Source: Thalassobaculaceae bacterium (GTDB taxonomy: Bacteria > Pseudomonadota > Alphaproteobacteria > Thalassobaculales > Thalassobaculaceae). From it: a stretch of 64,000 bases of DNA. The first letter of the stretch is position 1, and the number at the start of each line of letters is the position of its first letter. Location of the stretch: NCBI GenBank assembly GCA_965228875.1, contig OZ245843.1, positions 434,001 to 498,000 of the forward strand, read 5' to 3'. A model generated the notes under the pieces. It made no database searches and was not told the origin of the DNA. It worked only from the letters and a program-made list of their open reading frames with translations. Position numbers and translations under genes: made by a program. Below are positions 45,371-61,370 of the stretch, in pieces.

Positions 45371-45760
45371 ATGGACCGCAAGGCGATTGTCCCGGATGCG
45401 CTACGGAGCTGTTACGACGACTGGAAGATGTCGCCGGGGCTGGTGTCCGGCAACCATCTGTTCTGCACGGGCTTCACCGGGACCGGCCCGGACGGCCATT
45501 GCTCGCCCGATCCCGAGACACAGTTCCGCACGGCGTTCCAGCAGGTCGAGATGGTTCTGATGGAGGCCGGGCTGGACTTCGGCGCGGTCGTTGAGATGAC
45601 CTCCTATCACATCGGCCTGCGCGACCACCTCGACCTGTTCCGCAGGGTCCGGGCGGAATATGTGCGCGAGCCATATCCCGCCTGGACGGCCATCGAGGTT
45701 GCCGGTTTCGCCAGCGCCGATACGATCATCGAGATCCGGATCGTCGCCTGCGTAGCTTGA
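45371..45760 (+). CDS. RidA/YjgF-family protein
   Basis: LF.TG..G, R.EY..PYPAWTAIEV, IEI. Confidence 0.85.
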   Translation: MDRKAIVPDALRSCYDDWKMSPGLVSGNHLFCTGFTGTGPDGHCSPDPETQFRTAFQQVEMVLMEAGLDFGAVVEMTSYHIGLRDHLDLFRRVRAEYVREPYPAWTAIEVAGFASADTIIEIRIVACVA

Positions 45761-46736
45761 TCTGGACGGGAGCGGGCGGGGTCGACTCAAGCGCCCGGCT
45801 CAGCGCGTTCATCGCCGCCTCGATCTCGATCTCGGCCATCCGGTCGACCCGGTATTCGCCGCCGCCCTCCGGCTCCAGAGCCACCAGATTGGGATAGATC
45901 GTCAGGGGCGGCGAGCCGCCGAAGAGGCCGATCGAGGCGGTACCGGTGGCCGCCGCCAGGTTCAGCATGCCGCTGTCGTTCCCCAGGTAGACGTCGCTGG
46001 TCGCGACCAGGGCGGCGGCGACGCCGATCGGCCGGTTCACCGCCAGCACCACCGAGCCGCGGGCGTTCAGGACGATCCGCTCCGCGCTCTCGCGCTCGGC
46101 GTCTCCGCCGAACAGGATGACGCTGCCGCCGGTGCGGTCGGTGAAGGCCCGCGCGAGCTTGATGAAATTGTCCTCCGGCCAGCGCTTGAACGGTTCCGAC
46201 GCGCCGATACCAAGGCCGAGCCAGGGCCGCGGCAGGTCACCGTACAGGCGTGTGGCCTCGCCCCCGGCTTCCTCCGACGGGGACATGCGCGGTGTCGGAT
46301 CGACCTCGATCCCGTGGCCGCGCAGCAGCAGGCTGGCCCGGTCTCCCGGAGGCAGCTTCCGGTCGGTCTTGGGCAGGTCACGGTAGCTGAAGCGCCGGGG
46401 GATGCCGGCCAGTCGGGCGGCCGCGGCGTAGCGCCAGGAGCGGTGCAGGATCCAGACGGTCTCCGGCGCCAACCGGCGCAGGTCGGCGGCGAGCCGGAAG
46501 ACACCGAACGGGCCATCGTGGCGACCCCACCGCTCCCCGCCCTGCGCCCGTTCCAACCAGTAGACCCCGGAGATCCAAGGCGAACCCGCGAGCATCTCGT
46601 CGGCGAACGACCGGCGCTTTGTCATGACCGCGACGGTTCCGTCCGGCGACGCGTCGGCGAGCGCCTTCAGGTGCGGCAGATGCCAGACCATGTCGCCGAT
46701 TCCCGGCAGTGGCTGGATCACCAGCGTCTTCGTCAC
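45726..46736 (-). CDS. GT9 (heptosyltransferase-like) glycosyltransferase
   Basis: PGIGDMVW, GAS..KRWP, GNDSG.LNLAAA..GLFG. Confidence 0.88.
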   Translation of the reverse strand: MTKTLVIQPLPGIGDMVWHLPHLKALADASPDGTVAVMTKRRSFADEMLAGSPWISGVYWLERAQGGERWGRHDGPFGVFRLAADLRRLAPETVWILHRSWRYAAAARLAGIPRRFSYRDLPKTDRKLPPGDRASLLLRGHGIEVDPTPRMSPSEEAGGEATRLYGDLPRPWLGLGIGASEPFKRWPEDNFIKLARAFTDRTGGSVILFGGDAERESAERIVLNARGSVVLAVNRPIGVAAALVATSDVYLGNDSGMLNLAAATGTASIGLFGGSPPLTIYPNLVALEPEGGGEYRVDRMAEIEIEAAMNALSRALESTPPAPVQIKLRRRRSGSR

Positions 46737-46855: not shown

Positions 46856-47377
46856 ATGCCCGACGCCAGCTTCCGCCTGTACATGGCCATCAGCCTCGAC
46901 GGCTACGTCGCCGACGCCGAGGGCGGCGTCGACTGGCTGAATGCCTTCGAGACGGGGGTCGATTACGGGACCGACGCCTTCATGGCCGAGGTCGACACCC
47001 TGATCATGGGGCGTGCCACCTACGATCAGGTCATCGGCTTCGGCGTCTGGCCCTACGCGGGCAAGCGGACCTTCGTGCTCACCTCGCGCCCGATAGAGGA
47101 TGCGCCAGTGGATGTCGAAGGGACGTCCGATCTGGCCGGTCTGATCGCCGAGTTGCGGGAGCAGAAGGCGCAGGTGTGGATCGTCGGCGGCCCGGCCGCG
47201 GTCGACGGCTGCCGGTCGATGGGGGCGCTGGACACGGTGGAACTGTTCGTCATGCCGGTGCTGCTGGGATCGGGCATCCCGCTCTTCGCCGGCGAGGCCG
47301 AGGCCCTGGGCCTTCACCTAGTCTCGGTCGACGCGTTCGATACCGGGGCGGTGGCCGTCAGATATGAGGTGGAGTGA
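46856..47377 (+). CDS. Dihydrofolate reductase / RibD C-terminal family protein
   Basis: AISLDGYVA, MGRATY, W.VGG, PVLLGSGIPLF. Confidence 0.88.
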   Translation: MPDASFRLYMAISLDGYVADAEGGVDWLNAFETGVDYGTDAFMAEVDTLIMGRATYDQVIGFGVWPYAGKRTFVLTSRPIEDAPVDVEGTSDLAGLIAELREQKAQVWIVGGPAAVDGCRSMGALDTVELFVMPVLLGSGIPLFAGEAEALGLHLVSVDAFDTGAVAVRYEVE

Positions 47378-47427
47378 GCCGGAAATCGCTCCTAGTATCG
47401 CGGGAAACGCTGTCAATGGAGTCCTCG

Positions 47428-48759
47428 ATGTCCCTCGCGGCCAATGATTCGACCAAGCCGAACGATCTCGATCCGTTCTGGATGCCCTTCACCGCCAACC
47501 GCGACTTCAAGCAGCAGCCGCGGATGTTCGTCGAGGCGGAGGGCATGCACTACATCACCGCCGACGGCCGTCGGGTGCTCGACGGGACCTCGGGCCTGTG
47601 GTGCTCGAACGCCGGCCATCGGCGCAAGCCGATCGTCGACGCCATCCGCAAGCAGGCGGAAGTGCTGGACTTCGCGCCGGCGTTCCAGATGGGCCATCCG
47701 CTCTCCTTCGAGTTCGCCTCGCGGCTGACCCAGATGATCGAGGGCTACAGCCAGGTGTTCTTCACCAATTCCGGTTCGGAATCGGTGGACACCGCGCTGA
47801 AGATCGCGCTCGCCTATCAGCGGGCGATCGGCCAGGGAACGCGCACCCGCCTGATCGGGCGCGAGCGGGGATATCACGGCGTCGGTTTCGGCGGCATCTC
47901 GGTCGGCGGCATCGTCGGCAACCGCAAGCAGTTCGGCACCCTGCTGACCGGCGTCGACCACATCCGCCACACCCACGACCTGGAGCACAACGCCTACACC
48001 AAGGGCGAGCCGGGCTGGGGCGCGCACATGGCCGACGATCTCGAGCGGCTGGTCGCACTGCATGACGCCTCCACCATCGCCGCCGTGATCGTCGAGCCGG
48101 TGGCCGGGTCGACCGGTGTGCTGATTCCGCCGCAGGGCTACCTCAAGCGCCTGCGGGAGATCTGCGACAAGCACGGCATCCTGCTGATCTTCGACGAGGT
48201 CATCACCGGGTTCGGCAGGCTCGGCTCGCCGTTCGCCAGCGACTATTTCGGCGTCAAGCCCGACCTGTTCACCACGGCCAAGGGCATCACCAACGCGACG
48301 GTGCCGATGGGTGCCGTGTTCTGCCGCGACGGCATCTACGACGCGTTCATGGACGCGCCGGAAGGCTCGATCGAGCTGTTCCACGGCTACACGTACTCGG
48401 GTCATCCGCTGGCCTGCGCCGCCGGACTCGCCACCATCGACCTGTACCGCGACGAGGGGCTGTTCGAGCGGGCGGCGGAACTGGCGCCGTACTGGCAGGA
48501 CGCCATGCACTCGCTCAAGGGCTCCAACCACGTGATCGACATCCGCAACCTCGGTATGGTCGGCGCGGTCGAACTCGAGGGCATTCCGGGCAAGCCGACG
48601 GCGCGGGCCATGGACGCCTTCAAGCAATGCTACGAGAAGGGGCTGCTGGTCCGCACCACCGGCGACATCATCGCGCTGTCGCCGCCGCTGATCGTCGAGA
48701 AGGGCCAGATCGACTTCATCGCCGAGACTGTCGGTGACGTCCTGCGCACCTTGCATTGA
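47428..48759 (+). CDS. Omega-amino acid (beta-alanine):pyruvate aminotransferase, class III
   Basis: WMPFTANR, SGLWC, FDEVITGFGR, TTAKG, HGYTYSGHP. Confidence 0.92.
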   Translation: MSLAANDSTKPNDLDPFWMPFTANRDFKQQPRMFVEAEGMHYITADGRRVLDGTSGLWCSNAGHRRKPIVDAIRKQAEVLDFAPAFQMGHPLSFEFASRLTQMIEGYSQVFFTNSGSESVDTALKIALAYQRAIGQGTRTRLIGRERGYHGVGFGGISVGGIVGNRKQFGTLLTGVDHIRHTHDLEHNAYTKGEPGWGAHMADDLERLVALHDASTIAAVIVEPVAGSTGVLIPPQGYLKRLREICDKHGILLIFDEVITGFGRLGSPFASDYFGVKPDLFTTAKGITNATVPMGAVFCRDGIYDAFMDAPEGSIELFHGYTYSGHPLACAAGLATIDLYRDEGLFERAAELAPYWQDAMHSLKGSNHVIDIRNLGMVGAVELEGIPGKPTARAMDAFKQCYEKGLLVRTTGDIIALSPPLIVEKGQIDFIAETVGDVLRTLH

Positions 48760-48899
48760 GCGACGGAGGGCGTAGGGAACGGGTTTCGCTACGCTCTTCA
48801 ATAACTTGCGCGTTTCCACTAAACTCCTCGAATGAAAGCGGCCAGCCGCTTGGTCTTGGATGGGGGTGGAAAGCGATGATGACACTGGGACAGGGTCCG

Positions 48900-49175
48900 A
48901 TGCGGACCGTTCTGGTGGTCGCTTTTGTCGGGCTGCTGGCGGGCTGCGCGGGTGTGGGGGCATCGGTGCGTTCGGCAGTTGACGGCGTGAAGACCGCCTT
49001 CGATCCGCCGAAAGAGGAGCCGGCGCCCGACGTGGAGCCCCGTTACTGCTACAGGACACTCGGCAAGGTGAACTGCTATCCGCAGCCTCTGCCGGCCAGC
49101 GAGGCGAACCGGCTGGTCGGCTATCAGGGGCCGGCCCCGCGCGCGACCAGCGGGACGGGACCTCTCAGCCCGTGA
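48900..49175 (+). CDS. Small hypothetical lipoprotein
   Basis: LLAGC lipobox; YCYRTLGKVNCY. Confidence 0.7.
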   Translation: MRTVLVVAFVGLLAGCAGVGASVRSAVDGVKTAFDPPKEEPAPDVEPRYCYRTLGKVNCYPQPLPASEANRLVGYQGPAPRATSGTGPLSP

Positions 49176-49215
49176 CGGTCACCGTTTGCCTGTCTCCGTC
49201 ACTGCGGAACCGCCG

Positions 49216-49938
49216 GTGACGGCCCGCTTTCCCGGCCTGCTGCTTGCGCTGAGCCTGTGTGCGTTCCCCCACGCGACGCAGCCGGTGCTGGCGCAGGATG
49301 CCGACGTTCCGGTGCCTCAGACCTACGGCGATGCCATGCGCTGGTACCGCGACGCCGCCGAGGCCGGTGACGCGAAGGCGATGTTCTACCTCGGCCTGAC
49401 CATGGAGCAGGGCTTGCGCGCCGGCGCCGATGCGCGGGAGGCGGTGGCCTGGTATCGACGGTCGGCCGATGGTGGCTTCGCCCTGGCTCAGTTCAAGCTC
49501 GGGCAGCTCTACCAGTTCGGCCAGCTCGTCGAACAGGACGCGGATCGCGCGCGGCGCTGGTATGCCGAGGCGGCCGCCCAGAACCTCGCCGACGCCCAGT
49601 ACAATCTGGCGGTGATGCTGGAGACGGGGGAAGGCGGCCCGGTCGATGGCGAACGGGCGCAGGCGCTCTATCGGGACGCCGCCGCCGGCGGAATACCTGA
49701 GGCGTTCGTGAACCTGGCAGGGCTGCTGGCCCAGGGCGACCTGGTCGAGCAGGACCTGGTGGAGGCACTGAAATGGCTTCTCCTGGCCGAGCGGGCCGGC
49801 GTCGAGCAGGGGCAGGCAATGGCGGCGGCGGTCCGCCAACTGCTGAACCCGGTGGAGGTGGCGGATGCCGAAGCACGGGCCGATCGCTGGGCGAGCACCC
49901 GGGAGGGCGGACGCCCGCTGCCCCGGGCGGTGGAGTAG
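49216..49938 (+). CDS. Sel1-repeat protein, secreted
   Basis: Signal peptide; repeated A..WY..AA..G..A...LG. Confidence 0.85.
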   Translation: MTARFPGLLLALSLCAFPHATQPVLAQDADVPVPQTYGDAMRWYRDAAEAGDAKAMFYLGLTMEQGLRAGADAREAVAWYRRSADGGFALAQFKLGQLYQFGQLVEQDADRARRWYAEAAAQNLADAQYNLAVMLETGEGGPVDGERAQALYRDAAAGGIPEAFVNLAGLLAQGDLVEQDLVEALKWLLLAERAGVEQGQAMAAAVRQLLNPVEVADAEARADRWASTREGGRPLPRAVE

Positions 49939-50088
49939 GCGTGCGGCCTTAACCCTCGGAATCATCGGCGATTCCTTGAACGATTCGTCCATCAAAACGT
50001 TTCAAATTGCTCCGACTGTGCTCTAGAAAGCACCTCACCAAAGCGCTGACATCAGGAGGCGGACCGCCGGTCGAGGTCCGCGAGTTGC

Positions 50089-51513
50089 ATGAAGCCGCCG
50101 CTCTGCGTCGATCTCGATGACACGTTGCTGCGAACGGATCTTCTGTTCGAGTCGCTTCTCGTCGCGCTTCGACGGCGCCCGTGGATCCTGTTTCTGCTGC
50201 CGTTCTGGGTGGCGGGTGGACGGTCGTCGCTGAAGCGCCGGCTGGCGGCGATTGCCGGCGACGGAGTCGACATCGACCTGTTGCCGGTGACCGAGGATCT
50301 CGTTGACTACCTGCGCGCCGAGAAGACGGCGGGCCGGCGGATCGAGTTGGTGTCCGCTTCCGACGGAGTCCTGGTGGCGAGAGTTGCCGAGCGGTTCGGC
50401 GATCTGTTCGACCATGTCGAGGGCAGCGACGGCGTCACCAATCTGAAGGGGCCGGCGAAAGCCGCCGCCCTGGTCGCCCGTCATCCGGACGGCTTCGTCT
50501 ACGCCGGGGACAGCACCGCCGACGACGCGGTTTGGACGCGCGCGGCCGGCGCGATTCCGGTGAACGCGGCCCGCGATCGGCGCGCCGCCATCGACCGTCT
50601 GGCGCCGGTCGAGGCCGAATTCGGGACTCCGGTCAGCCTCGCCCGTGGAATGAAGTCGGGTATGCGCCTGCACCAGTGGGCGAAGAACGGGCTCATCTTC
50701 CTGCCGCTTCTGCTGACCAGCGCCTATACCGACCCGGCCATTCTGCTCAGCGCTGTCGCGGCGTTTCTCGGTTTCTCGTTGGCGGCCAGCGGCACCTATC
50801 TGCTGAACGACCTGCTCGATCTCGGCGCCGATCGGGGGCATCCGACCAAGAAGCGGCGGGCGCTCGCTTCCGGCCGCCTGCCAGTCGCGGTCGGACTTGT
50901 CGCGGCCCCGGCGCTGGTGGCGATCGGCCTGGTCCTCGCCGCTCTGGCGGGGTGGGGTGTGGCCGGCTGCCTGGCGGTCTACCTCGTGCTGACGCTCGCC
51001 TACTCCTTCGGGGTCAAGTCGATGGCGGTGGTCGACGTCATCGTGCTCGGCGCGTTGTTCACGCTTCGCCTGTTCGCCGGCCATACCCTGGTGGAAGGCG
51101 GGGCGCCGGTCTGGCTGCTCGGGTTCTCGCTGTTTCTGTTCACCAGCCTCGCCCTGGTCAAGCGGCTGATCGAGGTGCGCGGGCTGGAGGCGCGCGGGCT
51201 GGAGGCGATTCCGGGTCGCGGCTATCGCGCCGGCGACAGCGGATTTGTCGAGAGTTTCGGCATCACCACGAGCGTCGCCTCGGTGGTGATCTTCATGATC
51301 TACCTTGCGATCGAGCCGGAGCACGCCAGACGTCTCTCCGACCCGGAGTGGCTCTGGGTCGTGCCGGCGATGCTCGGCTTCTGGTTGCCGAGGGTCTGGC
51401 TGCTGGCGCGGCGCGGTGAGGTTCATGACGACCCCGTGGTGTTCGCCCTGAAGGATCCGCCGAGCCTCGTGCTGGGCGCCGTCGCCTTTCTGGCCATCCT
51501 GGTGGCCGCATGA
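50089..51513 (+). CDS. HAD-UbiA fusion: polyprenyl-phosphate phosphoribosyltransferase/phosphatase
   Basis: N-terminal DLDDT HAD motif and GDS..D; R.HQW.KN, Y..NDL.D..DR.HP.K..R..ASG, HDDPV.FA.KD. Confidence 0.9.
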   Translation: MKPPLCVDLDDTLLRTDLLFESLLVALRRRPWILFLLPFWVAGGRSSLKRRLAAIAGDGVDIDLLPVTEDLVDYLRAEKTAGRRIELVSASDGVLVARVAERFGDLFDHVEGSDGVTNLKGPAKAAALVARHPDGFVYAGDSTADDAVWTRAAGAIPVNAARDRRAAIDRLAPVEAEFGTPVSLARGMKSGMRLHQWAKNGLIFLPLLLTSAYTDPAILLSAVAAFLGFSLAASGTYLLNDLLDLGADRGHPTKKRRALASGRLPVAVGLVAAPALVAIGLVLAALAGWGVAGCLAVYLVLTLAYSFGVKSMAVVDVIVLGALFTLRLFAGHTLVEGGAPVWLLGFSLFLFTSLALVKRLIEVRGLEARGLEAIPGRGYRAGDSGFVESFGITTSVASVVIFMIYLAIEPEHARRLSDPEWLWVVPAMLGFWLPRVWLLARRGEVHDDPVVFALKDPPSLVLGAVAFLAILVAA

Positions 51514-52838
51514 CCGTGCGCGAGGATCATCGGGTTCTCGCCTGGGGGCGCGTGCACCGTGGCCGGCATCTGGTGGCGGCACCGCTCTCGCGGGCGGAGA
51601 TCCCCGGCGCCGCGCGCGATACGGCCGATGCCGGCGGCTCGACACTGGCCCACGGTCTTGGTCGGTCCTATGGCGACAGCGGTCTCAACCTCGGCGGCGG
51701 TCTGGTCCGTACGGCCGGCCTCGACCGTCTGATCGCGTTCGACCGGGACACCGGGGTGCTGCGCGCCGATGCGGGCCTGTCCCTCGCCGCGCTGTTGCGC
51801 GTCACCGTGCCAGCGGGTTGGTTCTTGCCAGTGACACCGGGGACGAAGTTCGTGACCCTGGGCGGCGCCGTTGCCAACGATGTGCACGGCAAGAACCACC
51901 ACGTTGCCGGAACGTTCGGCCGCCACGTCACCCGATTCGGCCTGTGGCGGAGCGACCGGGGCGAACTGACCTGCTCTCCTGAGGAGAACGCGGATCTTTT
52001 CGCCCTGACCGTCGGAGGGCTCGGCCTGACCGGCGTGGTCACCTGGGTGGAACTGCAGCTCGAGAGAATTGCCAGCGCGGAGCTCGATGTCGAGAACCGA
52101 CCGTTCGACGACCTCGACGCCTTCTTCGCGCTGTCCGAGGAGTCGCAGTCATGGCCGTTCACGGTCGCCTGGGTCGACACGCTGGCGCGGGGGGCGGGCC
52201 TCGGGCGCGGGATCTTCTCGCGTGGGCGCTGGGCGGAAACCGGCGAATTGCAGCCCCATCGCGACGGTGGCCCGCGGATGCCGTTGGACGCGCCCGGCGG
52301 GCTGCTCAACAGCCTGACGGTCGGTGCCTTCAACCGGCTCTACCGCGCGCGTCCCGGCGCGCGCTTCCATGGCCGCCAGCACTACGATCCGTTCTTCTAT
52401 CCGCTCGACCGGCTGCGCGAGTGGAACCGGATGTACGGCCCGCGCGGCTTCTACCAGTGGCAGTGCGCGATCCCGAGCGAGGCAATGGTCTCGGCAACCC
52501 GCACGCTGCTCGACAGCATCGCCGCCAGCGGCGAGGCGTCGTTCCTGGCCGTGCTCAAGACTTTCGGCGACATGCCTTCGCCCGGTGTGCTGTCCTTTCC
52601 GATGCCGGGCGCGACGCTGGCGCTGGACTTCCCGAACCGGGGGGCGGACACGCTGGCGCTGTTGGGGCGCCTGGATCGGGTTGTGGCCGAGGCGGGAGGA
52701 CGTCTATACCCCGCCAAGGACGGGCGCCTGCCGCAGGCGATGTTCCGCGCCGGTTTCCCGCGCTGGAGGGACCTCGAGGCGGCGCGCGATCCGGTTCTGA
52801 TGTCGAGTTTCTGGCGCCGCATGACCGAGGAAGGGTGA
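51510..52838 (+). CDS. DprE1-like FAD oxidase (polyprenyl-P-ribose 2'-oxidase)
   Basis: GLGRSYGD, PVTPGTKFVTLGGA.ANDVHGKNHH..G.FG, FFYPLD..WNR.YG..GF.Q.Q, GGRLY.AKD. Confidence 0.9.
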   Translation: MTVREDHRVLAWGRVHRGRHLVAAPLSRAEIPGAARDTADAGGSTLAHGLGRSYGDSGLNLGGGLVRTAGLDRLIAFDRDTGVLRADAGLSLAALLRVTVPAGWFLPVTPGTKFVTLGGAVANDVHGKNHHVAGTFGRHVTRFGLWRSDRGELTCSPEENADLFALTVGGLGLTGVVTWVELQLERIASAELDVENRPFDDLDAFFALSEESQSWPFTVAWVDTLARGAGLGRGIFSRGRWAETGELQPHRDGGPRMPLDAPGGLLNSLTVGAFNRLYRARPGARFHGRQHYDPFFYPLDRLREWNRMYGPRGFYQWQCAIPSEAMVSATRTLLDSIAASGEASFLAVLKTFGDMPSPGVLSFPMPGATLALDFPNRGADTLALLGRLDRVVAEAGGRLYPAKDGRLPQAMFRAGFPRWRDLEAARDPVLMSSFWRRMTEEG

Positions 52839-52844
52839 TCCGAG

Positions 52845-53597
52845 ATGGCCGCGAATAGCCGCATTCTGGTGCTGGGGGCCACCTCCGCCATCGCCGAGCA
52901 CTGGTGTCGCCTGCGCGCGGCATCCGGCGACAGTCTGCTGTTGGTGGCGCGCGATGGCGATAAACTGTCGTCGATCGCCGCCGACCTCAAGGCACGGGGC
53001 GTGGCAAGGGTCGAGTCCGTGGTCGAGGATCTGGCCGAGACCGCCGATGCGGACGCGCGGTTCGCCCGCTGGTCCGAGACCCTGGGCGGTGTCGACATCG
53101 TCCTGCTCGCCTACGGCATCCTCTGTGACCAGCAGGAGGCGCAGAGCGATACCGACATGCTGCTTGCCGGCATCCGGGCGAACTTCACCTCCGCCGCGGT
53201 CTGGTGCGAGTTGTCGGCTCGCCGGTTCGAGGCGGCGGGGGCGGGGACGCTGGTCGCCATCTCGTCGGTCGCCGGCGATCGCGGACGTCGGACCAACTAC
53301 GCCTATGGCGCGGCAAAGGCCGGCCTGTCGACCTATCTGGAGGGGCTGGCCCACCGGTTCGCCGGAAGCGCGGTCACCGTGATCTGCGTGAAGCCCGGCT
53401 TCGTCGCCACGCCGATGACCGCTCATATCGAGGGGCGGGACGGCCCGCTCTGGGCCACGCCGGATCAAGTCGCCGGGGACATTCAGGCGGCCGTAGAGAA
53501 GCGGCGGCCGGAGATCTACACCCGCTGGTTCTGGTATTTCGTGATGCTCATCATCCGCAATCTGCCCCGGCCCATCTTCAACAAGATGAAGATCTGA
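52845..53597 (+). CDS. DprE2-like SDR reductase
   Basis: LGATSAIA, ISSVAGDRGR.TNY.YGAAK, KPGFV.TPMT; follows the dprE1-like gene. Confidence 0.85.
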   Translation: MAANSRILVLGATSAIAEHWCRLRAASGDSLLLVARDGDKLSSIAADLKARGVARVESVVEDLAETADADARFARWSETLGGVDIVLLAYGILCDQQEAQSDTDMLLAGIRANFTSAAVWCELSARRFEAAGAGTLVAISSVAGDRGRRTNYAYGAAKAGLSTYLEGLAHRFAGSAVTVICVKPGFVATPMTAHIEGRDGPLWATPDQVAGDIQAAVEKRRPEIYTRWFWYFVMLIIRNLPRPIFNKMKI

Positions 53598-53601
53598 TCC
53601 C

Positions 53602-54531
53602 ATGGCGCGTATCGTCATCACCGGCGCCGCCGGCCTCGTCGGCCAGAATCTGATCGCGGGTATCGTCGACCGCGCGGACCTGCAGATCGTCGCCATCGAC
53701 AAGCATCCCAGGAACACGCCGGTTCTGGCGCGGCTGCATCCCGGGATCGAGGTCATCGAGGCGGACCTGGCCCGGCCGGGCGACTGGACGGGGGCGTTCA
53801 AGGGGGCGGACGCCGTGATCCAGCTCCACGCCCAGATCGGCGGTCTCGATGCCGACACCTTCGAGGCCAACAACGTGCGCGCCACCACGCTGGTGCTCGA
53901 CGCGATGAAGGCCGAGGGCGTGCCGTACCTCGTGCACGTCTCCTCGTCGGTGGTGAACTCCAAGGCCGTCGACTTCTACACCGAGAGCAAGAAGGCCCAG
54001 GAGCGGCTGGTGGTGGAGAGCGGGATCGCCCATTCGATCCTGCGCCCGACCCTGATGTACGGCTGGTTCGACCGAAAGCATCTCGGCTGGCTCGCCCGTT
54101 TCATGCAGCGCGCGCCGGTGTTTCCGATCCCGGGCAGCGGCCGCTACATGCGCCAGCCGCTTTACGCCGGCGATTTCTCCGACATCGTGCTGGCCTGTCT
54201 CGACGGCCGGCGCGAGGGGGCCTGGAACATCTCCGGCCAGGAGAAGATCGACTATGTCGACCTGATCAAAGCGGTACGCCGGGCGAGCGGAGCGAAGACG
54301 CCGATCCTGCACATTCCCTACAGCCTGTTCTGGCTGCTGCTGCGGGTCTATGCGGTGTTCGACCGCGATCCGCCCTTCACCACCAAGCAGCTCGAAGCGC
54401 TGGTGACGCCGGACAGCTTTGAGGTGATCGATTGGCCGGGCATCTTCGGCGTGCGTTCGACGCCGCTGGACGAGGCGCTGGCGGCCACCTTCAACGACCC
54501 GAAGTATTCGGGCGTGATCCTGGATTTCTGA
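53602..54531 (+). CDS. Extended SDR (NAD-dependent epimerase/reductase)
   Basis: TGAAGLVG, SSSV, YTESK, LRP. Confidence 0.85.
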   Translation: MARIVITGAAGLVGQNLIAGIVDRADLQIVAIDKHPRNTPVLARLHPGIEVIEADLARPGDWTGAFKGADAVIQLHAQIGGLDADTFEANNVRATTLVLDAMKAEGVPYLVHVSSSVVNSKAVDFYTESKKAQERLVVESGIAHSILRPTLMYGWFDRKHLGWLARFMQRAPVFPIPGSGRYMRQPLYAGDFSDIVLACLDGRREGAWNISGQEKIDYVDLIKAVRRASGAKTPILHIPYSLFWLLLRVYAVFDRDPPFTTKQLEALVTPDSFEVIDWPGIFGVRSTPLDEALAATFNDPKYSGVILDF

Positions 54532-54541
54532 GGAGGCCCGG

Positions 54542-55837
54542 ATGGCCAAAGTAGCGATCATCGGCGCCGGTGCCATGGGCCTCGCCGCCGCCTACCACGC
54601 GCTGGAGGCGGGGCACGAGGTCGTCGTCTACGAGGCGGACTCCGTGCCGGGCGGCATGGCCGCCCATCTCGATCTCGACGGGCTGTCGATCGAGCGCTTC
54701 TACCATTTCATCTGCAAGGCGGATCAGCCGACCTTCACGCTGATGGAGCGGCTCGGCATCGCCGATCGGATGCGGTGGACGCCGACCTCGATGGGGTATT
54801 TCGTCGACGGCAAGATGTACCGCTGGGGCGATCCGGTCGCCCTGCTGACCTTCCCCAAGATCGACTGGATCTCGAAGTTCCGCTACGGCCTCCAGATGTT
54901 CCTGGCGACCAAGCGCAGGGACTGGTCGGATCTGGAGACCGTGTCCGCCAAGGACTGGATCGAGAAAGGGGCGGGACGCCGGGTCTACGAACTGCTGTGG
55001 CGCCCGCTGTTCGATCTGAAGTTCTTCGAATACGCCGACAACGTCTCCGCCGCCTGGATCTGGACCCGGATCAAGCGGGTCGGGACCTCGCGGCGCTCCC
55101 TGATGCAGGAGGAACTCGGCTATATCGAGGGCGGATCGGAAACGCTGGTCACCGCCCTGGTCGAGGCGATCGAGGCGCGGGGCGGCACGATCCGGCTCTC
55201 GACACCGGCGCGTGAGGTCGTGGCCGAGGACGGCAGGGTCGTCGGCGTGCGTACCGACGCCGGCGTCGAGCCGGCCGAGGCGGTGATTTCCACCATGCCG
55301 ACGCCCTACGTCTCCAGCCTGGTGCCGGCCCTGTCCGACGACTGGAAGGCGAAGTACGACGCCATCGTCAACATCGGCGTGGTCTGCGTTCTGCTCCGCC
55401 TGAAGAAGCCGGTCACGGAGCATTTCTGGGTGAACATCAACGACCGCGCCGTCGAAATCCCCGGCATCATCCAGTTCTCCAACCTGCGGCCGGTCGAAGA
55501 CACCGTCGTCTACGTGCCGTTCTACATGCCGACCAGCCATCCGAAGTTCGCTCGCGACGACCAGGCGTTCATCGACGAGTCAATGGCCTGCCTGAAACAC
55601 CTCAACCCGGCCATCGGCGATGACGATCTCACGGCGTGGACCGTCGGCCGGCTGCGGCACGCCCAGCCGATCTGCGAGCCGGGGTTCCTGGCGAAGATTC
55701 CGCCGGTGCAGACCCCGATCCGCGGCCTGCAGATCTGCGATACCTCGTTCTACTATCCGGAGGATCGGGGAATCAGCGAGAGCGTGCGGGTTGCCGAGGA
55801 GATGGCGGCGGCAATCCCGGCATCCATATCGGGATAG
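54542..55837 (+). CDS. FAD-dependent oxidoreductase (amine oxidase/PPO-like fold)
   Basis: GAGAMGLAAA, E..GGMA, ERFYHF, LGY.EGG, YYPEDRG. Confidence 0.85.
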   Translation: MAKVAIIGAGAMGLAAAYHALEAGHEVVVYEADSVPGGMAAHLDLDGLSIERFYHFICKADQPTFTLMERLGIADRMRWTPTSMGYFVDGKMYRWGDPVALLTFPKIDWISKFRYGLQMFLATKRRDWSDLETVSAKDWIEKGAGRRVYELLWRPLFDLKFFEYADNVSAAWIWTRIKRVGTSRRSLMQEELGYIEGGSETLVTALVEAIEARGGTIRLSTPAREVVAEDGRVVGVRTDAGVEPAEAVISTMPTPYVSSLVPALSDDWKAKYDAIVNIGVVCVLLRLKKPVTEHFWVNINDRAVEIPGIIQFSNLRPVEDTVVYVPFYMPTSHPKFARDDQAFIDESMACLKHLNPAIGDDDLTAWTVGRLRHAQPICEPGFLAKIPPVQTPIRGLQICDTSFYYPEDRGISESVRVAEEMAAAIPASISG

Positions 55838-55846
55838 GAGGCGGGC

Positions 55847-56284
55847 GTGGCGCGCGCGATCGTTCTCGGCGAGTTCGGCCGGTTTCTGGTCACCGGCGGC
55901 ATTGCGGCCGGTGCCAACGTGGTCTCCCGCTGGCTGCTGAATTTCGCGATGCCGTTCGAGGCCGCCGTGGTGGTCGCCTATCTGATCGGCATGACGACCG
56001 CCTACGTGCTGTCCCGGCTGTTCGTGTTCGCCACCTCCGGGCGCAGCGTGCGCGACGAGTTCTTCCGCTTCGCCATCGTCAACGTGGTGGCCCTGATCCA
56101 GGTCTGGTTGGTGAGCGTCGGCCTCGCCCGCTATCTGTTCCCGGCGGTCGGCTTCACTTGGTACGCCGACGACATCGCCCACATGATCGGCGTGGTGATC
56201 CCGGCGGTGACCAGCTATCTCGGCCACCGGCACTTCTCCTTCGCCGCCCGAACCGCCGAGCCGACGGGTGAGGGGGAACGGTGA
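55847..56284 (+). CDS. GtrA-family flippase
   Basis: Four TM segments, RFLVTGG, R.FVF, SY.GHR.FSF. Confidence 0.88.
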   Translation: MARAIVLGEFGRFLVTGGIAAGANVVSRWLLNFAMPFEAAVVVAYLIGMTTAYVLSRLFVFATSGRSVRDEFFRFAIVNVVALIQVWLVSVGLARYLFPAVGFTWYADDIAHMIGVVIPAVTSYLGHRHFSFAARTAEPTGEGER

Positions 56285-58407
56285 TGCGGATTGCGGTCGC
56301 GCTGTCGGTCGCCCTGGCGCTTGTGACCCTTGCAGCCGGCGCTGCCTATTCGCTGCTGCTCTCCACGTCGGTGCCGATCGGCGACATCGTCGACTTCTAC
56401 CACCAGTTCATGGAAGCGGACGGGTTCGCCGGCTACGGCCTGAGTGAGCTGTTCAGGTGGCACAACGAGCATCGCCTTGTCGTGCCCAAGCTCTGGTTTC
56501 TGGCGGATATCGCACTCGTCGATGGCCGGCAGAGCCTGTTGCGGGCGGTCATCTTCCTCTCCGCCCTGTTGCATGCCGGTCTTCTCGCCCTGCTGTTCCG
56601 CAGCCTCGGCCATTCCGTTCGGACGACCGGTCTCGCCGCTCTCGTCGCCGCCGCGGCTTTCGTGTCCCCGGTTCAGTACGAGAACCTGCTTAATGGGTTC
56701 CAGGTCCAGTTCGTTCAGGTTTGGCTGTTCGCCACGATCTCCCTGGCGCTCATCGCCTGGGCGCCGGCACGCGAGGATCGGCCGCTGGCAATCGGTCTCT
56801 GCGTCGTCGGTGCTGTTCTGGGGGGGCTCGCCTCGACGTACAGCATGTTCAACGGCGTGGCGGTCTGGCCGTTGCTGGTGGTGTTCGCCTTCTGGCGCCG
56901 GCTGCCGCTCGGCTGGTGCCTGCTGCTCGCGGCGGTCGGCGGGGCCGTCGTGGCCGCGCAGATCACGGGGTTCCTTGCCCGGCCAGGCGCCGGTGGCGGC
57001 TATGCCACGGGGATCGATCCTTTCACGGTCCTGCTCTTCATGGGACGCTATCTGGCCTCCGCGCTTGGTCAGATCGGCACCCTGGGCCAGGAGGTGGTTG
57101 GCATCGCGGCGATGGCCGCCGTCGTCGCCGGGGGGCTCCATGCGTTGGTCCGACCGGCATCGACGCCGCCCGCTCGCATGGCGCTGTACGCGCTCGGCGC
57201 CTTTCTGATGGTGGCGGCGTTGGCGACGGCGCTCGGCCGGCTGCACATCGGTCTCGGGGCCGCCGATTCCTCCCGCTACACGACACCGTCCATGCTGTTC
57301 CTGGTGACGACGGGGCTGCTCGCCTTCGACCTGCTTCTGCGCACCGGACGACGGCAGGCGATCGCAGTGTCGCTTGGCGTCGGGGTCGTGGTCCTGCTGG
57401 TGCCGGGACTGGTTCATGGCCTGCGTGGTCTTCCGCATCGTCTGGCCGCCCGCGACCTGGCGGAACTGACCGTCGTCAGCCATCTGGCCGCCGGCTACCG
57501 CCCGGACACGCTTCTTCATATTTATCCGGAATGGCCGCCACGCACGACAACCGTGCTCGACGGCATGCGCAGGTTCGGGATCGGTCCTTTCTCTGAGATC
57601 GACCGCTTCCGCCCGCCTCAGGGCGCGCTGGCTGACGGTCCGACGGTCGAGACGCCGCTCTGTGACGGCAGCGCCGAGCGCCTGCGGGTCGATCCGGTGA
57701 CGGGCGTGACCGTTTCCGCCTGGCTGGCCGACGCCGAGAGCGGAAGACGTGCACCCTGGCTGGTTGTCCGGTCGACGGATGGCAAGGTCCTGGCCTGGGG
57801 AGCGGCGCTGGAGCCGCGCGGCGACCGGGTGCCGATTCCCGAGCCGGGAATGTTCGAGCGCGGGCTGCGTGGTTTCGGGCCGGCGCCGGAGGCGATGGTC
57901 GACAGTGCGATCGTCGAAGGTGTGTTCGCCGATGGCACCCGCTGCCGGCTGCCGGGCACGGTGGCGGCGCTTCCCGACCGCTATATCGCCGAACTGCCCG
58001 TCGGCGCCCGTCCCGCCCTCCCGGACGGTTGGACGTTCGAGGGCGAGCCGCTCGCCGGCGGTACGGGAGACACGGCGGTTCCGGATGCCGCCCGGCCGGT
58101 CTACGGCTCAATGGGTCTGAACGACCGGCGCTTTGCCGCGTCGGCGACGCTCGGCGTGCCAGGCGAGGCGCGGGGTGTCCTGCTGCCGCTTCGCAGCCAG
58201 AACTGGCCGTTCGGAACCACGATCATCTTGCAGACGGCCGACGGTGTGACGCTGGACGACGTCACGTTGACCCGGCCGGTCCGCGACTGGGCATGGCTGG
58301 TGCTGAAGGCACCGCAAATGGATGAGGGCATGCGGATCGTGATCCGCACCGTCGAGCGTCATCCCCGCAACGCCGTGGCGTTCGGCACGCCGTACTGGTT
58401 GCCGTGA
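56281..58407 (+). CDS. Polytopic membrane protein, probable GT-C glycosyltransferase
   Basis: About 12 hydrophobic segments, first loop GDIVDFY/WHNEHR, SSRY, soluble C-terminal domain; follows gtrA. Confidence 0.65.
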   Translation: MMRIAVALSVALALVTLAAGAAYSLLLSTSVPIGDIVDFYHQFMEADGFAGYGLSELFRWHNEHRLVVPKLWFLADIALVDGRQSLLRAVIFLSALLHAGLLALLFRSLGHSVRTTGLAALVAAAAFVSPVQYENLLNGFQVQFVQVWLFATISLALIAWAPAREDRPLAIGLCVVGAVLGGLASTYSMFNGVAVWPLLVVFAFWRRLPLGWCLLLAAVGGAVVAAQITGFLARPGAGGGYATGIDPFTVLLFMGRYLASALGQIGTLGQEVVGIAAMAAVVAGGLHALVRPASTPPARMALYALGAFLMVAALATALGRLHIGLGAADSSRYTTPSMLFLVTTGLLAFDLLLRTGRRQAIAVSLGVGVVVLLVPGLVHGLRGLPHRLAARDLAELTVVSHLAAGYRPDTLLHIYPEWPPRTTTVLDGMRRFGIGPFSEIDRFRPPQGALADGPTVETPLCDGSAERLRVDPVTGVTVSAWLADAESGRRAPWLVVRSTDGKVLAWGAALEPRGDRVPIPEPGMFERGLRGFGPAPEAMVDSAIVEGVFADGTRCRLPGTVAALPDRYIAELPVGARPALPDGWTFEGEPLAGGTGDTAVPDAARPVYGSMGLNDRRFAASATLGVPGEARGVLLPLRSQNWPFGTTIILQTADGVTLDDVTLTRPVRDWAWLVLKAPQMDEGMRIVIRTVERHPRNAVAFGTPYWLP

Positions 58408-59312
58408 GCGTGGGGGGCGCATCGGCACCGCGCTTCGCGCCCTATGACAAGGGGCGGTTTCAACTGACCTTGGGAATAAAGGAGATCGCGCCGGCGGAGT
58501 GGATCGATGTCGACCCGCACTATCCCGAGCACATGGCTGAAAAGAAGCGTCTGCTGGCGGAGCGTCACGGCGATGTCTTCGGCGCCACAGTCGGCAGCGA
58601 GGAGGCGCAGTCCGAATGTCTCGACATGTTGGAGGCGGACCTGGCGGCGCATCACCCGGCGCTCGTTTCCCGACAGGACGGCCATCTGCTTACCGCCTGG
58701 GACGGTGCGGCGCTCGCACGGGCCGATTTCACCGCGGCACCGCTGGATCTCGCCGGCCGTCTGGTCCAGGAGGACCTGTGCCTCATGGTGCCGGCGGAGG
58801 AAGGTCACCGGCTGATCGCGGCGACCCTTTGCTTCCCGGCGCGCTGGCGGCTCGCGGAGAAGCTCGGCCGACCGATGAGTGCGATCCACGCACCGGTTCC
58901 CGGCTTCAACGACCGTCTCAACCGGCCGGTAGAGCGGTTCTTCTCGGGCATCGGACCGGACCGGCTCTACATGCGGCTCAACTGGTCGGTACTCGACGAT
59001 GCGGCGCTGTTTCAGCCGACCGGCCACGGACGCGGGGAGTTGGACCGAACGATCACGCCGGAGAATGCCGACACCCGCCTGCACATCCGGATCGAGCGCC
59101 AGACATTTCGCCGATTGCCGGCGAGCGGTGCGCTGGTCTTCGGGATCAAGACGTTGATCGACCCGATCACGACGGTCGCCGAACGGCCGGACCTGGCGGC
59201 GGCGATGCTGGGCTCGCTGCGGACGATGCCGGACGACATGCGCGCCTACAAAAGCATGGCGCCCTTCGCGTCGGCTCTGGAGACGTGGCTGCTGCGGCAT
59301 ACCGGTTCTTGA
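58404..59312 (+). CDS. DUF3445 / heme-dependent oxidative N-demethylase alpha-like protein
   Basis: VQEDLCLM, CFP.RW...KLG.....IH.PVP, R.NWS, R.ERQT.RRLP.SGA.VF.I.T. Confidence 0.8.
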   Translation: MSVGGASAPRFAPYDKGRFQLTLGIKEIAPAEWIDVDPHYPEHMAEKKRLLAERHGDVFGATVGSEEAQSECLDMLEADLAAHHPALVSRQDGHLLTAWDGAALARADFTAAPLDLAGRLVQEDLCLMVPAEEGHRLIAATLCFPARWRLAEKLGRPMSAIHAPVPGFNDRLNRPVERFFSGIGPDRLYMRLNWSVLDDAALFQPTGHGRGELDRTITPENADTRLHIRIERQTFRRLPASGALVFGIKTLIDPITTVAERPDLAAAMLGSLRTMPDDMRAYKSMAPFASALETWLLRHTGS

Positions 59313-59515
59313 CCTGGCGAATCTGGATGCGAATTAAACCGTATCGGTGGTGGGTGGCCGGATGCGTTCCACAGTGTCGACCATGTTTCCGGTATGTTTA
59401 CGAATTGCGCCTAAAATGCATACAATATCCATAGCAGCAGTGTGGGGGTTGATGTGAGCGTGAACGCGAGGAGTCGCGAGCGGGCGGTGTTTGCATATGC
59501 CGGCCTTCCCTGCTG

Positions 59516-60673: not shown

Positions 60674-60679
60674 GACCGC

Positions 60680-61303: not shown

Positions 61304-61370
61304 GGCTGTTCTCTCTTCCTTCGGTTCGGGGACATCATCCGCTCTGACCGGGCGGTGCCGATCGCATCGG

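Follow-up and report, generated by a model that had tools for sequence, protein, structure and literature searches.

A co-inherited second redox gene pair in DprE1/E2-type loci for lipid-linked pentofuranose donors

Introduction

Until 2024, lipid-linked pentofuranose donors were regarded as a mycobacterial speciality. One of the enzymes involved is a leading target of tuberculosis drugs, and on Gram-negative surfaces such donors drive antigenic diversity. In the decaprenyl-phospho-arabinose pathway (UbiA/Rv3806c, DprE1, DprE2 and the GtrA-like Rv3789), lipid-linked ribose is converted to D-Araf by a synthase, an FAD oxidase and an SDR reductase resembling those predicted for the locus described here. 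Proteobacterial versions, which likewise combine these enzymes with a GtrA-like protein and a GT-C transferase, have been described for P. paraeruginosa (PSPA7_6245-6251) and Azorhizobium/Rhizobium (noeCHOP) (10.1101/2020.04.19.049825, PMC5080398). PSPA7_6250 and PSPA7_6251 are called ‘hypothetical’ and are reported to be dispensable for pilin arabinosylation.

A closely similar arrangement is the extracytoplasmic ORF15-ORF14-ORF12 system of Citrobacter youngae O1/O2 (Kelly et al. 2024, PMC11127046). As portrayed there, it has in common with what is predicted for our locus a synthase of the UbiA type that uses PRPP and is fused to a HAD phosphatase, a protein resembling flippases, and a GT-C transferase whose C-terminal domain is of the carbohydrate-binding type. 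Both also have auxiliary epimerases that appear to diversify the pentose (ORF13 in C. youngae O2; PMC11127046).

Results and discussion

The operon and its products

The operon lies at positions 50089-59312 on the + strand of the window (the whole 64,000-nucleotide stretch that was analysed) from a marine-type alphaproteobacterium. Its genes are separated by intergenic distances of -4 to +10 nt (ORF listing, Pfam, NCBIfam) and are as follows:

50089-51513, + strand: fusion of HAD (N-terminal phosphatase) and UbiA (C-terminal), 474 aa, referred to as HAD-UbiA (Pfam HAD 8-145, UbiA 214-442)
51510-52838, + strand: E1, DprE1-like FAD oxidase, 442 aa (Pfam FAD_binding_4)
52845-53597, + strand: E2, DprE2-like classical SDR reductase, 250 aa (Pfam adh_short)
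53602-54531, + strand: NADepi, extended SDR of the ‘NAD dependent epimerase/dehydratase’ family, 309 aa (Pfam Epimerase, NAD_binding_10, 3Beta_HSD)
54542-55837, + strand: FADox, phytoene-desaturase/protoporphyrinogen-oxidase-like flavoprotein, 431 aa (Pfam Amino_oxidase, NAD_binding_8)
55847-56284, + strand: GtrA-family small membrane protein, 145 aa (GtrA_DPMS_TM, 54.6 bits)
56281-58407, + strand: 708-aa membrane protein, glycosyltransferase of GT-C fold according to its predicted structure
58404-59312, + strand: HODM_asu-like (DUF3445-type) protein, 302 aa (Pfam PF11927, 235 bits)

The interval 51510-55837 contains exactly four redox genes (ORF listing, Pfam, NCBIfam), and the gene coordinates place a second NAD-SDR/FAD pair, NADepi and FADox, between the DprE1/E2-like genes and gtrA, both as the initial annotation had it. 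Across the whole genome, the synthase family, the DprE1-like protein and FADox were each represented by a single strong match. HAD-UbiA scored 542 bits with NF006088 (cut-off 351) and 131-132 bits with the decaprenyl-phosphate phosphoribosyltransferase models (NCBIfam); by its sequence it is a predicted polyprenyl-phosphate phosphoribosyltransferase with a built-in 5'-phosphatase. E1 matched positions 3-438 of 449 of the DprE1 model NF053785 with 359 bits, the equivalog cut-off of 500 being higher, and E2 reached 268 bits with NF005489 (cut-off 267) and 169 bits with the DprE2 model NF053786, under its cut-off of 250. E1 adjoins the synthase and E2 genes in both pair-positive and pair-negative genomes, and the E2 gene was adjacent to E1 in nearly every locus examined.

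The 708-aa protein had no sequence match in Pfam, NCBIfam or the PDB. Its AF2 model (pLDDT 83.8) has a predicted GT-C fold, as residues 1-404 aligned with AglB (Z 16.2), ArnT (15.3), STT3 (14.8), PMT (14.6), EmbB (14.1) and AftB (14.0), and residues 566-708 form a C-terminal beta-sandwich that aligned with CBM-like modules at Z 9-10 (VIA-align). The HODM_asu-like gene overlaps the GT-C stop by 4 nt, and its place behind the GT-C gene is conserved only in close relatives (loci L017-L022 and L024); whether its product is part of the system is uncertain.

NADepi, for which no specific NCBIfam model was matched, carries the motifs GAAGLVG, S114-S116, Y126xxxK130 and D33. The segments T7-G-A-A-G-L-V-G14 and Y126-T-E-S-K130 are invariant or nearly so in 37 homologs and agree with the TGxxGxxG/YxxxK pattern of extended SDRs. 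The nearest solved sequences were 9g83_P, GalE-1 3ehe, SimC7 and NDUFA9 (E 1e-8 to 1e-6).

FADox matched positions 2-429 of 435 of NF005560 (PRK07233, ‘hypothetical protein’) with 526 bits (cut-off 252), a family label that carries no function. It stayed far under the NCBIfam cut-offs of HpnE, its best match among named models (94 of 283 bits), phytoene desaturase (60 of 569) and protoporphyrinogen oxidase (30 of 98). The top folds for its AF2 model (pLDDT 91) were 3lov, 5mog (TMq 0.81), 3ka7 and 2ivd; it shares with phytoene desaturase, protoporphyrinogen oxidase and HpnE the amine-oxidase fold (TMq 0.76-0.81) and an N-terminal dinucleotide-binding motif. Those enzymes carry out C-C bond chemistry on hydrophobic substrates, and C-C and C-N chemistry, not sugar oxidation, is what members of this fold are known to perform; no sugar-alcohol oxidase is known to us among them. 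The genomic partners of FADox are glycan-donor genes and not genes of carotenoid, haem or hopanoid synthesis. The FADox family comprises ~1000 clusters at 50% identity (E ≤ 1e-30), and no biochemical characterisation of any member was found in the portion of the literature covered.

Distribution and linkage of the cassette

Co-occurrence was determined in a sample of 301 Pseudomonadota genomes, 42 of them DprE1-positive. The NADepi-FADox-GtrA cassette was present in 7 of these 42 genomes and absent from the other 35. NADepi orthologs (55-60% identity) occurred in exactly 7 of the 301 genomes, the very seven in which a match to the FADox family coincided with a HAD-UbiA match above cut-off; E1 was present in 7/7, and a GtrA homolog adjoined the NADepi-FADox genes in every one of them. 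An orthologous pair without DprE1 and the synthase was not found among the 301 genomes, and the FADox ortholog occurred in 0/7 sample genomes having the synthase without E1, although these numbers are small.

Linkage was counted at 53 ortholog loci, each with at least 5 kb on either side. The synthase, E1 and E2 were found together at 38 of these loci, and NADepi was directly beside FADox at 39. Among 59 loci containing NADepi, it directly adjoins FADox in 57. Gene order and strand of the linked cassette and pentose genes differ among loci, so that linkage survives rearrangement, and because the arrangement recurs in other genomes and in several gene orders it does not reflect chance. Where FADox is unlinked, as in five Acidobacteriaceae, E1 (4/5) and the synthase (5/5) are encoded elsewhere in the same genomes.

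Presence and absence of the cassette vary within two genera (g97 and g109), and in g97 it occupies the site where the other genome carries an LPG_synthase_TM gene. Four of the 5 genomes checked, two isolates among these four, have FADox orthologs but no NADepi ortholog (E ≤ 1e-40), and at such loci a Methyltransf_23 gene, or nothing, takes its place. The cassette is widespread and optional, and so is not peculiar to the window. Taken as a claim about a second oxidase/reductase pair, the initial annotation holds insofar as the genes are co-inherited with DprE1/E2 systems (7/7), but the FADox loci without NADepi, the sister subfamily in GT2-type operons described below and the chemistry known for the fold family speak against a strict oxidase/reductase pair. 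Our data support the second pair as a genuine accessory that is inherited together with DprE1/E2-type lipid-pentofuranose systems, so that a donor other than plain Araf is plausible. In addition, noeCHOP makes D-Araf without a second redox pair, as far as PMC5080398 describes it, which counts in favor of the cassette changing the donor sugar.

Fusion proteins point in the same direction, since their partners are typical of sugar tailoring. FADox is fused to GtrA (P0370), to SAM methyltransferases (P0262, P0268) and to an FkbM methyltransferase (P0286), and NADepi to Gal-3-O-sulfotransferase-like sulfotransferases (P0394, P0395) and to a methyltransferase (P0396). NADepi and FADox themselves are joined in P0397, a single record that is incomplete at its end.

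Proposed function

Gene content, operon structure, co-inheritance, dependence on E1 and the synthase, folds and fusions were observed directly; which substrate is used, in what order the steps run, which position is attacked and what sugar results are inferred. Our favored reading, with a probability of roughly 0.45, is that the operon builds a polyprenyl-phosphate-linked pentofuranose donor for use outside the cytoplasm and that the cassette performs a second redox tailoring of this donor. HAD-UbiA would convert PRPP to polyprenyl-P-ribofuranose, and E1/E2, judged by their homology to DprE1/DprE2 and NoeC/NoeH, would epimerise C2' to give the D-Araf donor. NADepi-FADox-GtrA would be an optional module working on the lipid-linked sugar at the cytoplasmic face, where FADox, as a monotopic flavoenzyme docked on GtrA, would oxidise the donor and NADepi, an NADH-type SDR, would reduce the product, this second oxidation-reduction altering the sugar. 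The GT-C enzyme may then move the altered sugar onto an envelope glycan. The add-on cassette probably alters the sugar donor before its attachment to the cell surface.

The strongest competing explanation, which retains an appreciable though minority chance, is that FADox modifies the polyprenyl lipid and not the sugar, for instance by saturating, desaturating or isomerising the isoprene unit next to the phosphate, yielding a dolichol-like or otherwise dedicated carrier for GT-C donors, with NADepi as a helper or acting separately. The nearest folds, phytoene desaturase and protoporphyrinogen oxidase, and the HpnE score are consistent with this, as is the occurrence of FADox without NADepi. 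As precedents, related flavoenzymes act on lipid double bonds, among them retinol saturase and, in tuberculostearate synthesis, the FAD enzyme. Moreover, the family accompanies UbiA-type and GT2-type synthases alike: a sister subfamily, 29-33% identical to FADox, is found in GT2-type nucleotide-sugar Gtr-like operons without DprE1/E2. Its type-A operons encode a different catalytic SDR (YxxxK) in 8/8 loci with enough sequence, in favor of the tailoring reading, but most of its operons (type B; 35 of the 58 loci with enough upstream sequence) have no dedicated SDR beside FADox, which speaks against that reading. The sister FADox is directly downstream of a flippase-like protein in 48/58 loci, and the P0370 protein joins FADox to GtrA, both in favor of a role on the lipid. 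Family members above the cut-off also occur in Haloferax volcanii and Methanosarcina acetivorans, archaea that employ dolichol carriers. Service to both pentose and nucleotide-sugar systems, together with archaeal members, fits a sugar-independent step. On the other hand, the subfamilies follow donor type, the ortholog standing with UbiA/E1/E2 genes and the sister with GT2 synthases, and the sampled genomes had the ortholog only alongside E1, the seven E1-less synthase genomes being few. Lipid modification also gives NADepi and the sulfotransferase and FkbM fusions no obvious role, and our partial literature search found no publication naming such an enzyme.

Within the tailoring reading, the simplest chemical outcome would be inversion at C3' to polyprenyl-P-D-lyxofuranose. 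Such a 3'-epimerisation is possible but doubtful. So is the fuller proposal that FADox represents a new flavoenzyme class, a GtrA-docked oxidase of phytoene-desaturase fold for lipid-linked sugars, which with NADepi would form a second ‘DprE-like’ epimerase, non-homologous to DprE1/E2, converting polyprenyl-P-D-Araf at C3' to D-lyxofuranose. If true, carriers of the cassette would decorate their envelope with Lyxf, a sugar that according to Kelly et al. 2024 (PMC11127046) occurs in no solved glycan structure, and the sister subfamily would act in a like manner on the lipid-linked hexoses of Gtr-like systems. The two-enzyme C3 epimerase named in the initial annotation proved to be mistaken: as described in PMC11127046, Xylf of C. 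youngae O2 is made by one GalE-like SDR, ORF13.

Since that one SDR suffices for undP-Ribf to undP-Xylf (PMC11127046), NADepi might by itself epimerise the lipid-linked pentose as a GalE/ORF13-type enzyme, turning Araf into Lyxf or Ribf into Xylf, with FADox doing a separate job tied to GtrA. The TGxxGxxG-type and YxxxK motifs recur in NADepi, its fusions P0394-P0396 link it to other tailoring enzymes without FADox, and FADox exists without it. Nevertheless, we consider this unlikely, as NADepi orthologs never occurred without FADox in the 301-genome sample, 57 of the 59 NADepi loci have FADox next door, and a fusion of the two exists. It is more improbable still that FADox is a redox-neutral isomerase that, like UDP-galactopyranose mutase (UGM), changes the ring size or anomeric configuration of its lipid-linked sugar. 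Autonomous action as an isomerase would account for loci without an SDR, and UGM belongs to the same fold superfamily (5hhf, rank 49, TMq 0.73), but it ranked well below phytoene desaturase and protoporphyrinogen oxidase, FADox has no Pfam GLF match, and NADepi would be left without a role. Finally, SDRs of the NADepi type usually act on nucleotide sugars and the Acidobacteriaceae FADox is placed among housekeeping genes, but that the pair lies outside the pentose pathway, as a passenger neighbor or with another substrate such as nucleotide sugars, is highly improbable given that co-occurrence with E1 and the synthase persists at genome level when unlinked, that linkage is kept through rearrangements, and that GtrA fusions exist.

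The locus carries a strictly associated yet optional, uncharacterised cassette on a known lipid-pentose pathway. Three outcomes can be envisaged, namely a lyxofuranose glycan, which would be the first known from nature, a novel kind of oxidase for lipid-linked sugars, or a glycosyl carrier lipid that bacteria modify. Each would extend the present picture of extracytoplasmic glycosylation by a step.

Comparison with known systems

Compared with the mycobacterial pathway, the window E1 and E2 score under the NCBIfam DprE1/DprE2 equivalog cut-offs. In Gtr-type glycosylation (GtrA-GtrB-Gtr*), the classical systems, as presented in PMC11127046 and PMC11194591, have no flavoenzyme or SDR, whereas the sister FADox resides in GT2-GtrA-...-GT-C-like operons and the window cassette includes GtrA. 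The three-component system of C. youngae employs a MATE protein as flippase candidate (PMC11127046), in contrast to GtrA in the window; no MATE-family Pfam match was present in the genes scanned, with gaps, between 44408 and 63980, and a GtrA-family protein was found instead. The C. youngae transferase is a GT136 GT-C enzyme; the 708-aa protein of the window aligned with GT-C enzymes by fold (Z 14-16) and had no sequence family match. The epimerases of the window consist of the DprE1/E2-like proteins plus an extra SDR and a flavoenzyme; the latter two are not described in PMC11127046, whose main text contains ‘FAD’ and ‘oxidoreductase’ 0 times, and they set this locus apart from the C. youngae system.

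Operon structure and gene content

Eight genes on the + strand at 50089–59312 make up the operon; in the ORF listing, neighbors either overlap by 4 nt or lie no more than 10 nt apart. Gene identities in the window were assigned with Pfam and NCBIfam.

Features of the operon and its upstream neighborhood
44408–45358 (+) and 45726–46736 (−): two GT9 (heptosyltransferase-family) genes flanking a RidA-like gene
47374–49938 (+): class-III aminotransferase, 139-aa protein without family, and Sel1-repeat protein, directly upstream of the synthase
50089–51513 (+): synthase, a HAD (N-terminal) and UbiA (C-terminal) fusion, 474 aa; NF006088 542 bits, cut-off 351
51510–52838 (+): E1, DprE1-like FAD_binding_4 protein, 442 aa; DprE1 model nearly full length, 359 bits, below the cut-off of 500
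52845–53597 (+): E2, DprE2-like classical SDR, 250 aa; DprE2 model 169 bits, below the cut-off of 250
53602–54531 (+): NADepi, extended SDR, 309 aa
54542–55837 (+): FADox, Amino_oxidase/NAD_binding_8 flavoprotein, 431 aa; NF005560 (“hypothetical protein”) 526 bits, cut-off 252
55847–56284 (+): GtrA, 145 aa
56281–58407 (+): membrane protein without family match, 708 aa
58404–59312 (+): HODM_asu-like protein, 302 aa

The synthase, E1 and E2 constitute the base pathway, for which a lipid-linked D-arabinofuranose (D-Araf) donor, formed by C2′ epimerisation, is proposed by homology; NADepi, FADox and GtrA are referred to as the cassette. The decaprenyl-phosphate phosphoribosyltransferase models of NCBIfam gave the HAD-UbiA protein about 131 bits. 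Synthase, E1 and FADox are each present as one strong copy in the window's genome. The initial annotation had noticed a second oxidase/reductase pair and considered a D-lyxofuranose (D-Lyxf) donor as its possible product. The second pair was confirmed, as 51510–55837 comprises exactly the four redox genes, and the locus indeed contains one synthase, one flippase candidate (GtrA) and one transferase, whose GT-C fold derives from a predicted model. Counts from a promoter and terminator scan of 47000–61500 did not exceed those in shuffled sequences.

Conservation and distribution of the cassette

A FADox-alignment scan of species genomes yielded 585 confirmed relatives, and the window's proteins were placed on the loci of the best 80 by tblastn. 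NADepi directly adjoined FADox in 57 of these 80 loci, and in 52 of the 71 whose two flanks each measured 1.1 kb or more. Where both flanks reached 5 kb or more (53 loci), synthase, E1 and E2 were all present in 38. The gene order differed among lineages, examples being NADepi-FADox-GtrA, then the synthase in inverted orientation and E1-E2; FADox-NADepi-GtrA opposite E2-E1-synthase; and FADox-synthase-E1-E2-NADepi-GtrA. This argues that the linkage was selected and does not reflect descent alone. Of these 53 larger loci, 15 lacked E1, and they belonged to Acidobacteriota (14) and Xanthobacter (1). E1 was encoded elsewhere in four, and the synthase in all, of five Acidobacteriaceae genomes searched, and both were found elsewhere in the genomes of Xanthobacter, Sedimenticola and one further organism.

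The phyletic distribution was assessed in 301 evenly sampled Pseudomonadota genomes, one of them that of the window. The synthase family exceeded its cut-off in 39 genomes, E1 relatives (E ≤ 1e-50) occurred in 42, and the FADox family exceeded its cut-off in nine. Clear NADepi orthologs (55–60% identity; remaining matches ≤31%) were confined to seven genomes, which were exactly the FADox genomes that also possess synthase and E1, and in all seven a GtrA homolog lay beside the NADepi and FADox genes. The cassette was absent from 35 of the 42 E1-positive genomes; it was also absent from all seven genomes with a synthase and no E1, a weak point given these small numbers. One genus (g97) was split between synthase-E1-E2-NADepi-FADox-GtrA and synthase-E1-E2-LPG_synthase_TM, and a second (g109) was likewise split for cassette presence. 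Identity to the window's E1 was about the same in cassette-positive genomes (46–55%) and in the best-matching cassette-negative genomes (49–56%). Cassette-negative loci contained an unassigned membrane protein together with either a divergent GtrA or an LPG_synthase_TM protein. This phyletic pattern indicates that the base pathway is self-standing and that the cassette is an accessory dependent on it, which is the distribution of a tailoring module.

One cassette-negative locus (L118, G061:C1) carries at 10999–11880, between a UbiA-only synthase and E2-E1, an extended SDR 25% identical to NADepi, and another genome (G172) has a similar SDR near its synthase. Both are possible ORF13-like epimerases beside DprE1/E2.

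FADox without NADepi and in a sister subfamily

A search of five genomes with a FADox locus devoid of NADepi found no NADepi ortholog (E ≤ 1e-40) in four, among them Alsobacter metallidurans and Sphingomonas quercus, both of which are isolates. In two of these four loci a Methyltransf_23 gene adjoins GtrA and FADox in place of NADepi. This speaks against a strict oxidase/reductase pair: FADox and GtrA are the core, and NADepi is their commonest but replaceable partner. In one genome without NADepi, a 406-aa ORF with Methyltransf_23 at residues 201–354 adjoins FADox (L040, 11299–12635, − strand). A GtrA-like match overlaps its N-terminal end and reaches upstream of the called start, so that GtrA and the methyltransferase may be fused here.

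A sister FADox subfamily occurs in hexose-type systems. Among the sample's nine genomes with a FADox-family match, two (G232 and G060, both 100% complete) contained neither E1 nor a UbiA synthase, and their FADox proteins were 33% and 29% identical to that of the window, respectively. The operon of G060 reads short SDR-GT2-GtrA-FADox-647-aa membrane protein with DUF7024, and that of G232 GT2-LPG_synthase_TM-FADox-unassigned membrane protein. A metagenome scan with these two FADox proteins returned 80 loci. Directly upstream of the sister FADox, the 58 loci with >1.2 kb of upstream sequence encoded GtrA (13), LPG_synthase_TM (35) or neither (10), and GT2 lay within 3 kb in 29 of the 39 loci with >3.2 kb upstream. 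A short SDR with the motifs GxGxxA, STCS and YxxxK preceded GT2 in all eight type-A loci with enough sequence. We rejected the idea that both FADox subfamilies share the same pair, as the hhalign probability between NADepi and this short SDR was 2%; the two are not specifically related, and only the presence of an SDR in both subfamilies holds. In four type-B loci scanned with Pfam, the gap between GT2 and flippase contained a sugar-phosphate nucleotidyltransferase gene, often near a GDP-mannose-dehydratase-like SDR. The GT2-type operons show that the FADox partnership is independent of the sugar source: the family is a recurrent partner of a lipid-phosphate-sugar synthase with flippase-like and GT-C-like proteins, whatever the origin of the sugar.

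One metagenome contig (L192, 24–9296) carries synthase-E1-E2 and, 3 kb on, GT2-LPG_synthase_TM-sister FADox. Among control genomes, NF005560 scored above its cut-off in Haloferax volcanii and Methanosarcina acetivorans. A FADox search of plasmids gave eight records, none archaeal.

Predicted enzymes and fusion proteins

In NADepi, the residues G8-A-A-G11-x-x-G14, D33, S114–116 and Y126xxxK130 showed little or no variation across 37 homologs. Its relatives among solved sequences were all distant, the nearest being 9g83_P, a GalE, SimC7 and NDUFA9 (E 1e-8 to 1e-6). The FADox model (pLDDT 91, pTM 0.90) was closest in fold to the putative protoporphyrinogen oxidase 3lov and rice phytoene desaturase (5mog, TMq 0.81), followed by the uncharacterised Methanosarcina oxidoreductase 3ka7 and Myxococcus PPO. 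This fold family comprises enzymes acting on C–C and C–N bonds. A search of the ESM Atlas gave generic names only. Both proteins begin with a dinucleotide-binding strand and have no signal peptide-like start; judged by these termini, they should act at the cytoplasmic face.

An exhaustive search recovered 1007 FADox-family clusters (E ≤ 1e-30), and the best 150 matches were examined for fusions. These included one GtrA-FADox fusion (P0370), two fusions of FADox with a SAM methyltransferase (P0262, P0268) and one FkbM methyltransferase-FADox fusion (P0286). The search for longer NADepi relatives gave four proteins: NADepi and FADox in one frame (P0397, a single record with an incomplete end), a sulfotransferase of the Sulfotransfer_2/Gal-3-O-sulfotransferase kind joined to NADepi in two Beggiatoa species (P0394, P0395), and a SAM methyltransferase-NADepi fusion (P0396). 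Sugar tailoring is the typical task of such methyl- and sulfotransferases, and the fusions therefore favor the sugar moiety of the lipid-linked donor as the site of action.

The transferase and the genomic neighborhood

In the model of the 708-aa protein (pLDDT 83.8), some 13 membrane helices precede a beta-rich domain. Residues 1–404 aligned to AglB (Z 16.2), ArnT (15.3), EmbB (14.1) and AftB (14.0), and also to STT3, PMT, ALG3, PglB and AftA; every one of the protein's best 24 structural matches was a GT-C enzyme. Residues 566–708 resembled carbohydrate-binding-type beta sandwiches (Z 9–10). Homologs (25–64% identity) occurred in just 12 of the 80 FADox-relative loci. Thalassobaculum fulvum (L020, 11706–15955) has two GT-C genes in tandem after GtrA, each product being 41% identical to that of the window.

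The last gene of the operon, a doubtful member of the pentose system, overlaps the GT-C stop by 4 nt. It encodes a protein resembling the alpha subunit of haem-dependent oxidative N-demethylase, and its position was kept in the close relatives L017–L022 and L024 and in no other locus. The three genes upstream of the synthase were syntenic in Thalassobaculaceae-type relatives only. The idea that the class-III aminotransferase (47374–48759) makes an amino-pentose was rejected as unsupported: this gene was kept only in the same close relatives, and between it and the operon lie two genes unrelated to either. The GT9 pair suggests an LPS-core neighborhood, and the pentose acceptor might therefore be LPS.

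Possible roles of the cassette

We consider it most plausible, with a probability of roughly 45%, that the cassette tailors the sugar of the lipid-linked donor. Its partners are tailoring enzymes, and the FADox subfamilies divide along donor types. The orthologous cassette is dependent on E1/E2, and the combination of an oxidase and a reductase mirrors DprE1/DprE2 of the same operon. Under sugar tailoring, D-Lyxf formed by C3′ inversion is the simplest outcome, yet this specific product is unlikely.

An alternative that we rate as rather unlikely is a FADox reaction on the carrier lipid, adjacent to its phosphate. The archaeal family members, the GtrA-FADox fusion and the FADox loci without an SDR fit a lipid-directed or other sugar-independent role, and the replaceability of NADepi, the fold family and the independence of sugar type keep modification of the carrier lipid alive. 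Our literature search found no bacterial or archaeal polyprenol saturase of the FADox fold. NADepi acting as a stand-alone ORF13-like epimerase appears doubtful, and FADox as a mutase-like isomerase is quite improbable; UDP-galactopyranose mutase appeared only at rank 49 of the fold ranking. That the pair is unrelated to the pentose pathway, despite its dependence on E1/E2, is very hard to credit.

Comparison with known pentofuranose systems

In the systems of Kelly et al. 2024 (PMC11127046), undP-Ribf is the product of a HAD-UbiA synthase; once exported by a flippase, it is used by a GT-C transferase. Araf-containing glycans are accompanied by DprE1/E2 homologs. In C. youngae O2, the Xylf donor is formed from the Ribf donor by ORF13 alone, a single GalE-like SDR (PMC11127046), and the two-enzyme C3 epimerase named in the initial annotation was therefore mistaken. 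According to the available text of the same paper, Lyxf occurs in no solved carbohydrate structure and would require inversion at both C2 and C3 (PMC11127046). The best 20 of 95 matches on lyxofuranose contained no bacterial Lyxf glycan beyond this remark. In P. paraeruginosa, the Araf cluster includes two more “hypothetical” genes, 6250 and 6251, which are dispensable for pilin arabinosylation (10.1101/2020.04.19.049825).

Our literature search gave no described function for the NADepi-FADox pair. New here is, first, the phyletic rule of the cassette: it is an option that requires E1 and can differ between genomes of one genus. Also new are the sister FADox subfamily of the GT2-type operons, the fusions, the replaceability of NADepi and the correction of the two-enzyme precedent. 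The noeCHOP genes of Azorhizobium and Rhizobium IRBG74 comprise E1, E2, synthase and transferase and yield D-Araf; as presented in the available text (PMC5080398), they have no second pair, unlike the window operon. The cassette was not found described in the literature searched, and the base system is of the kind described in 2024; to those pentofuranose systems, for which the main text mentions neither FAD nor oxidoreductases (PMC11127046), the window adds an extra SDR and a flavoenzyme.
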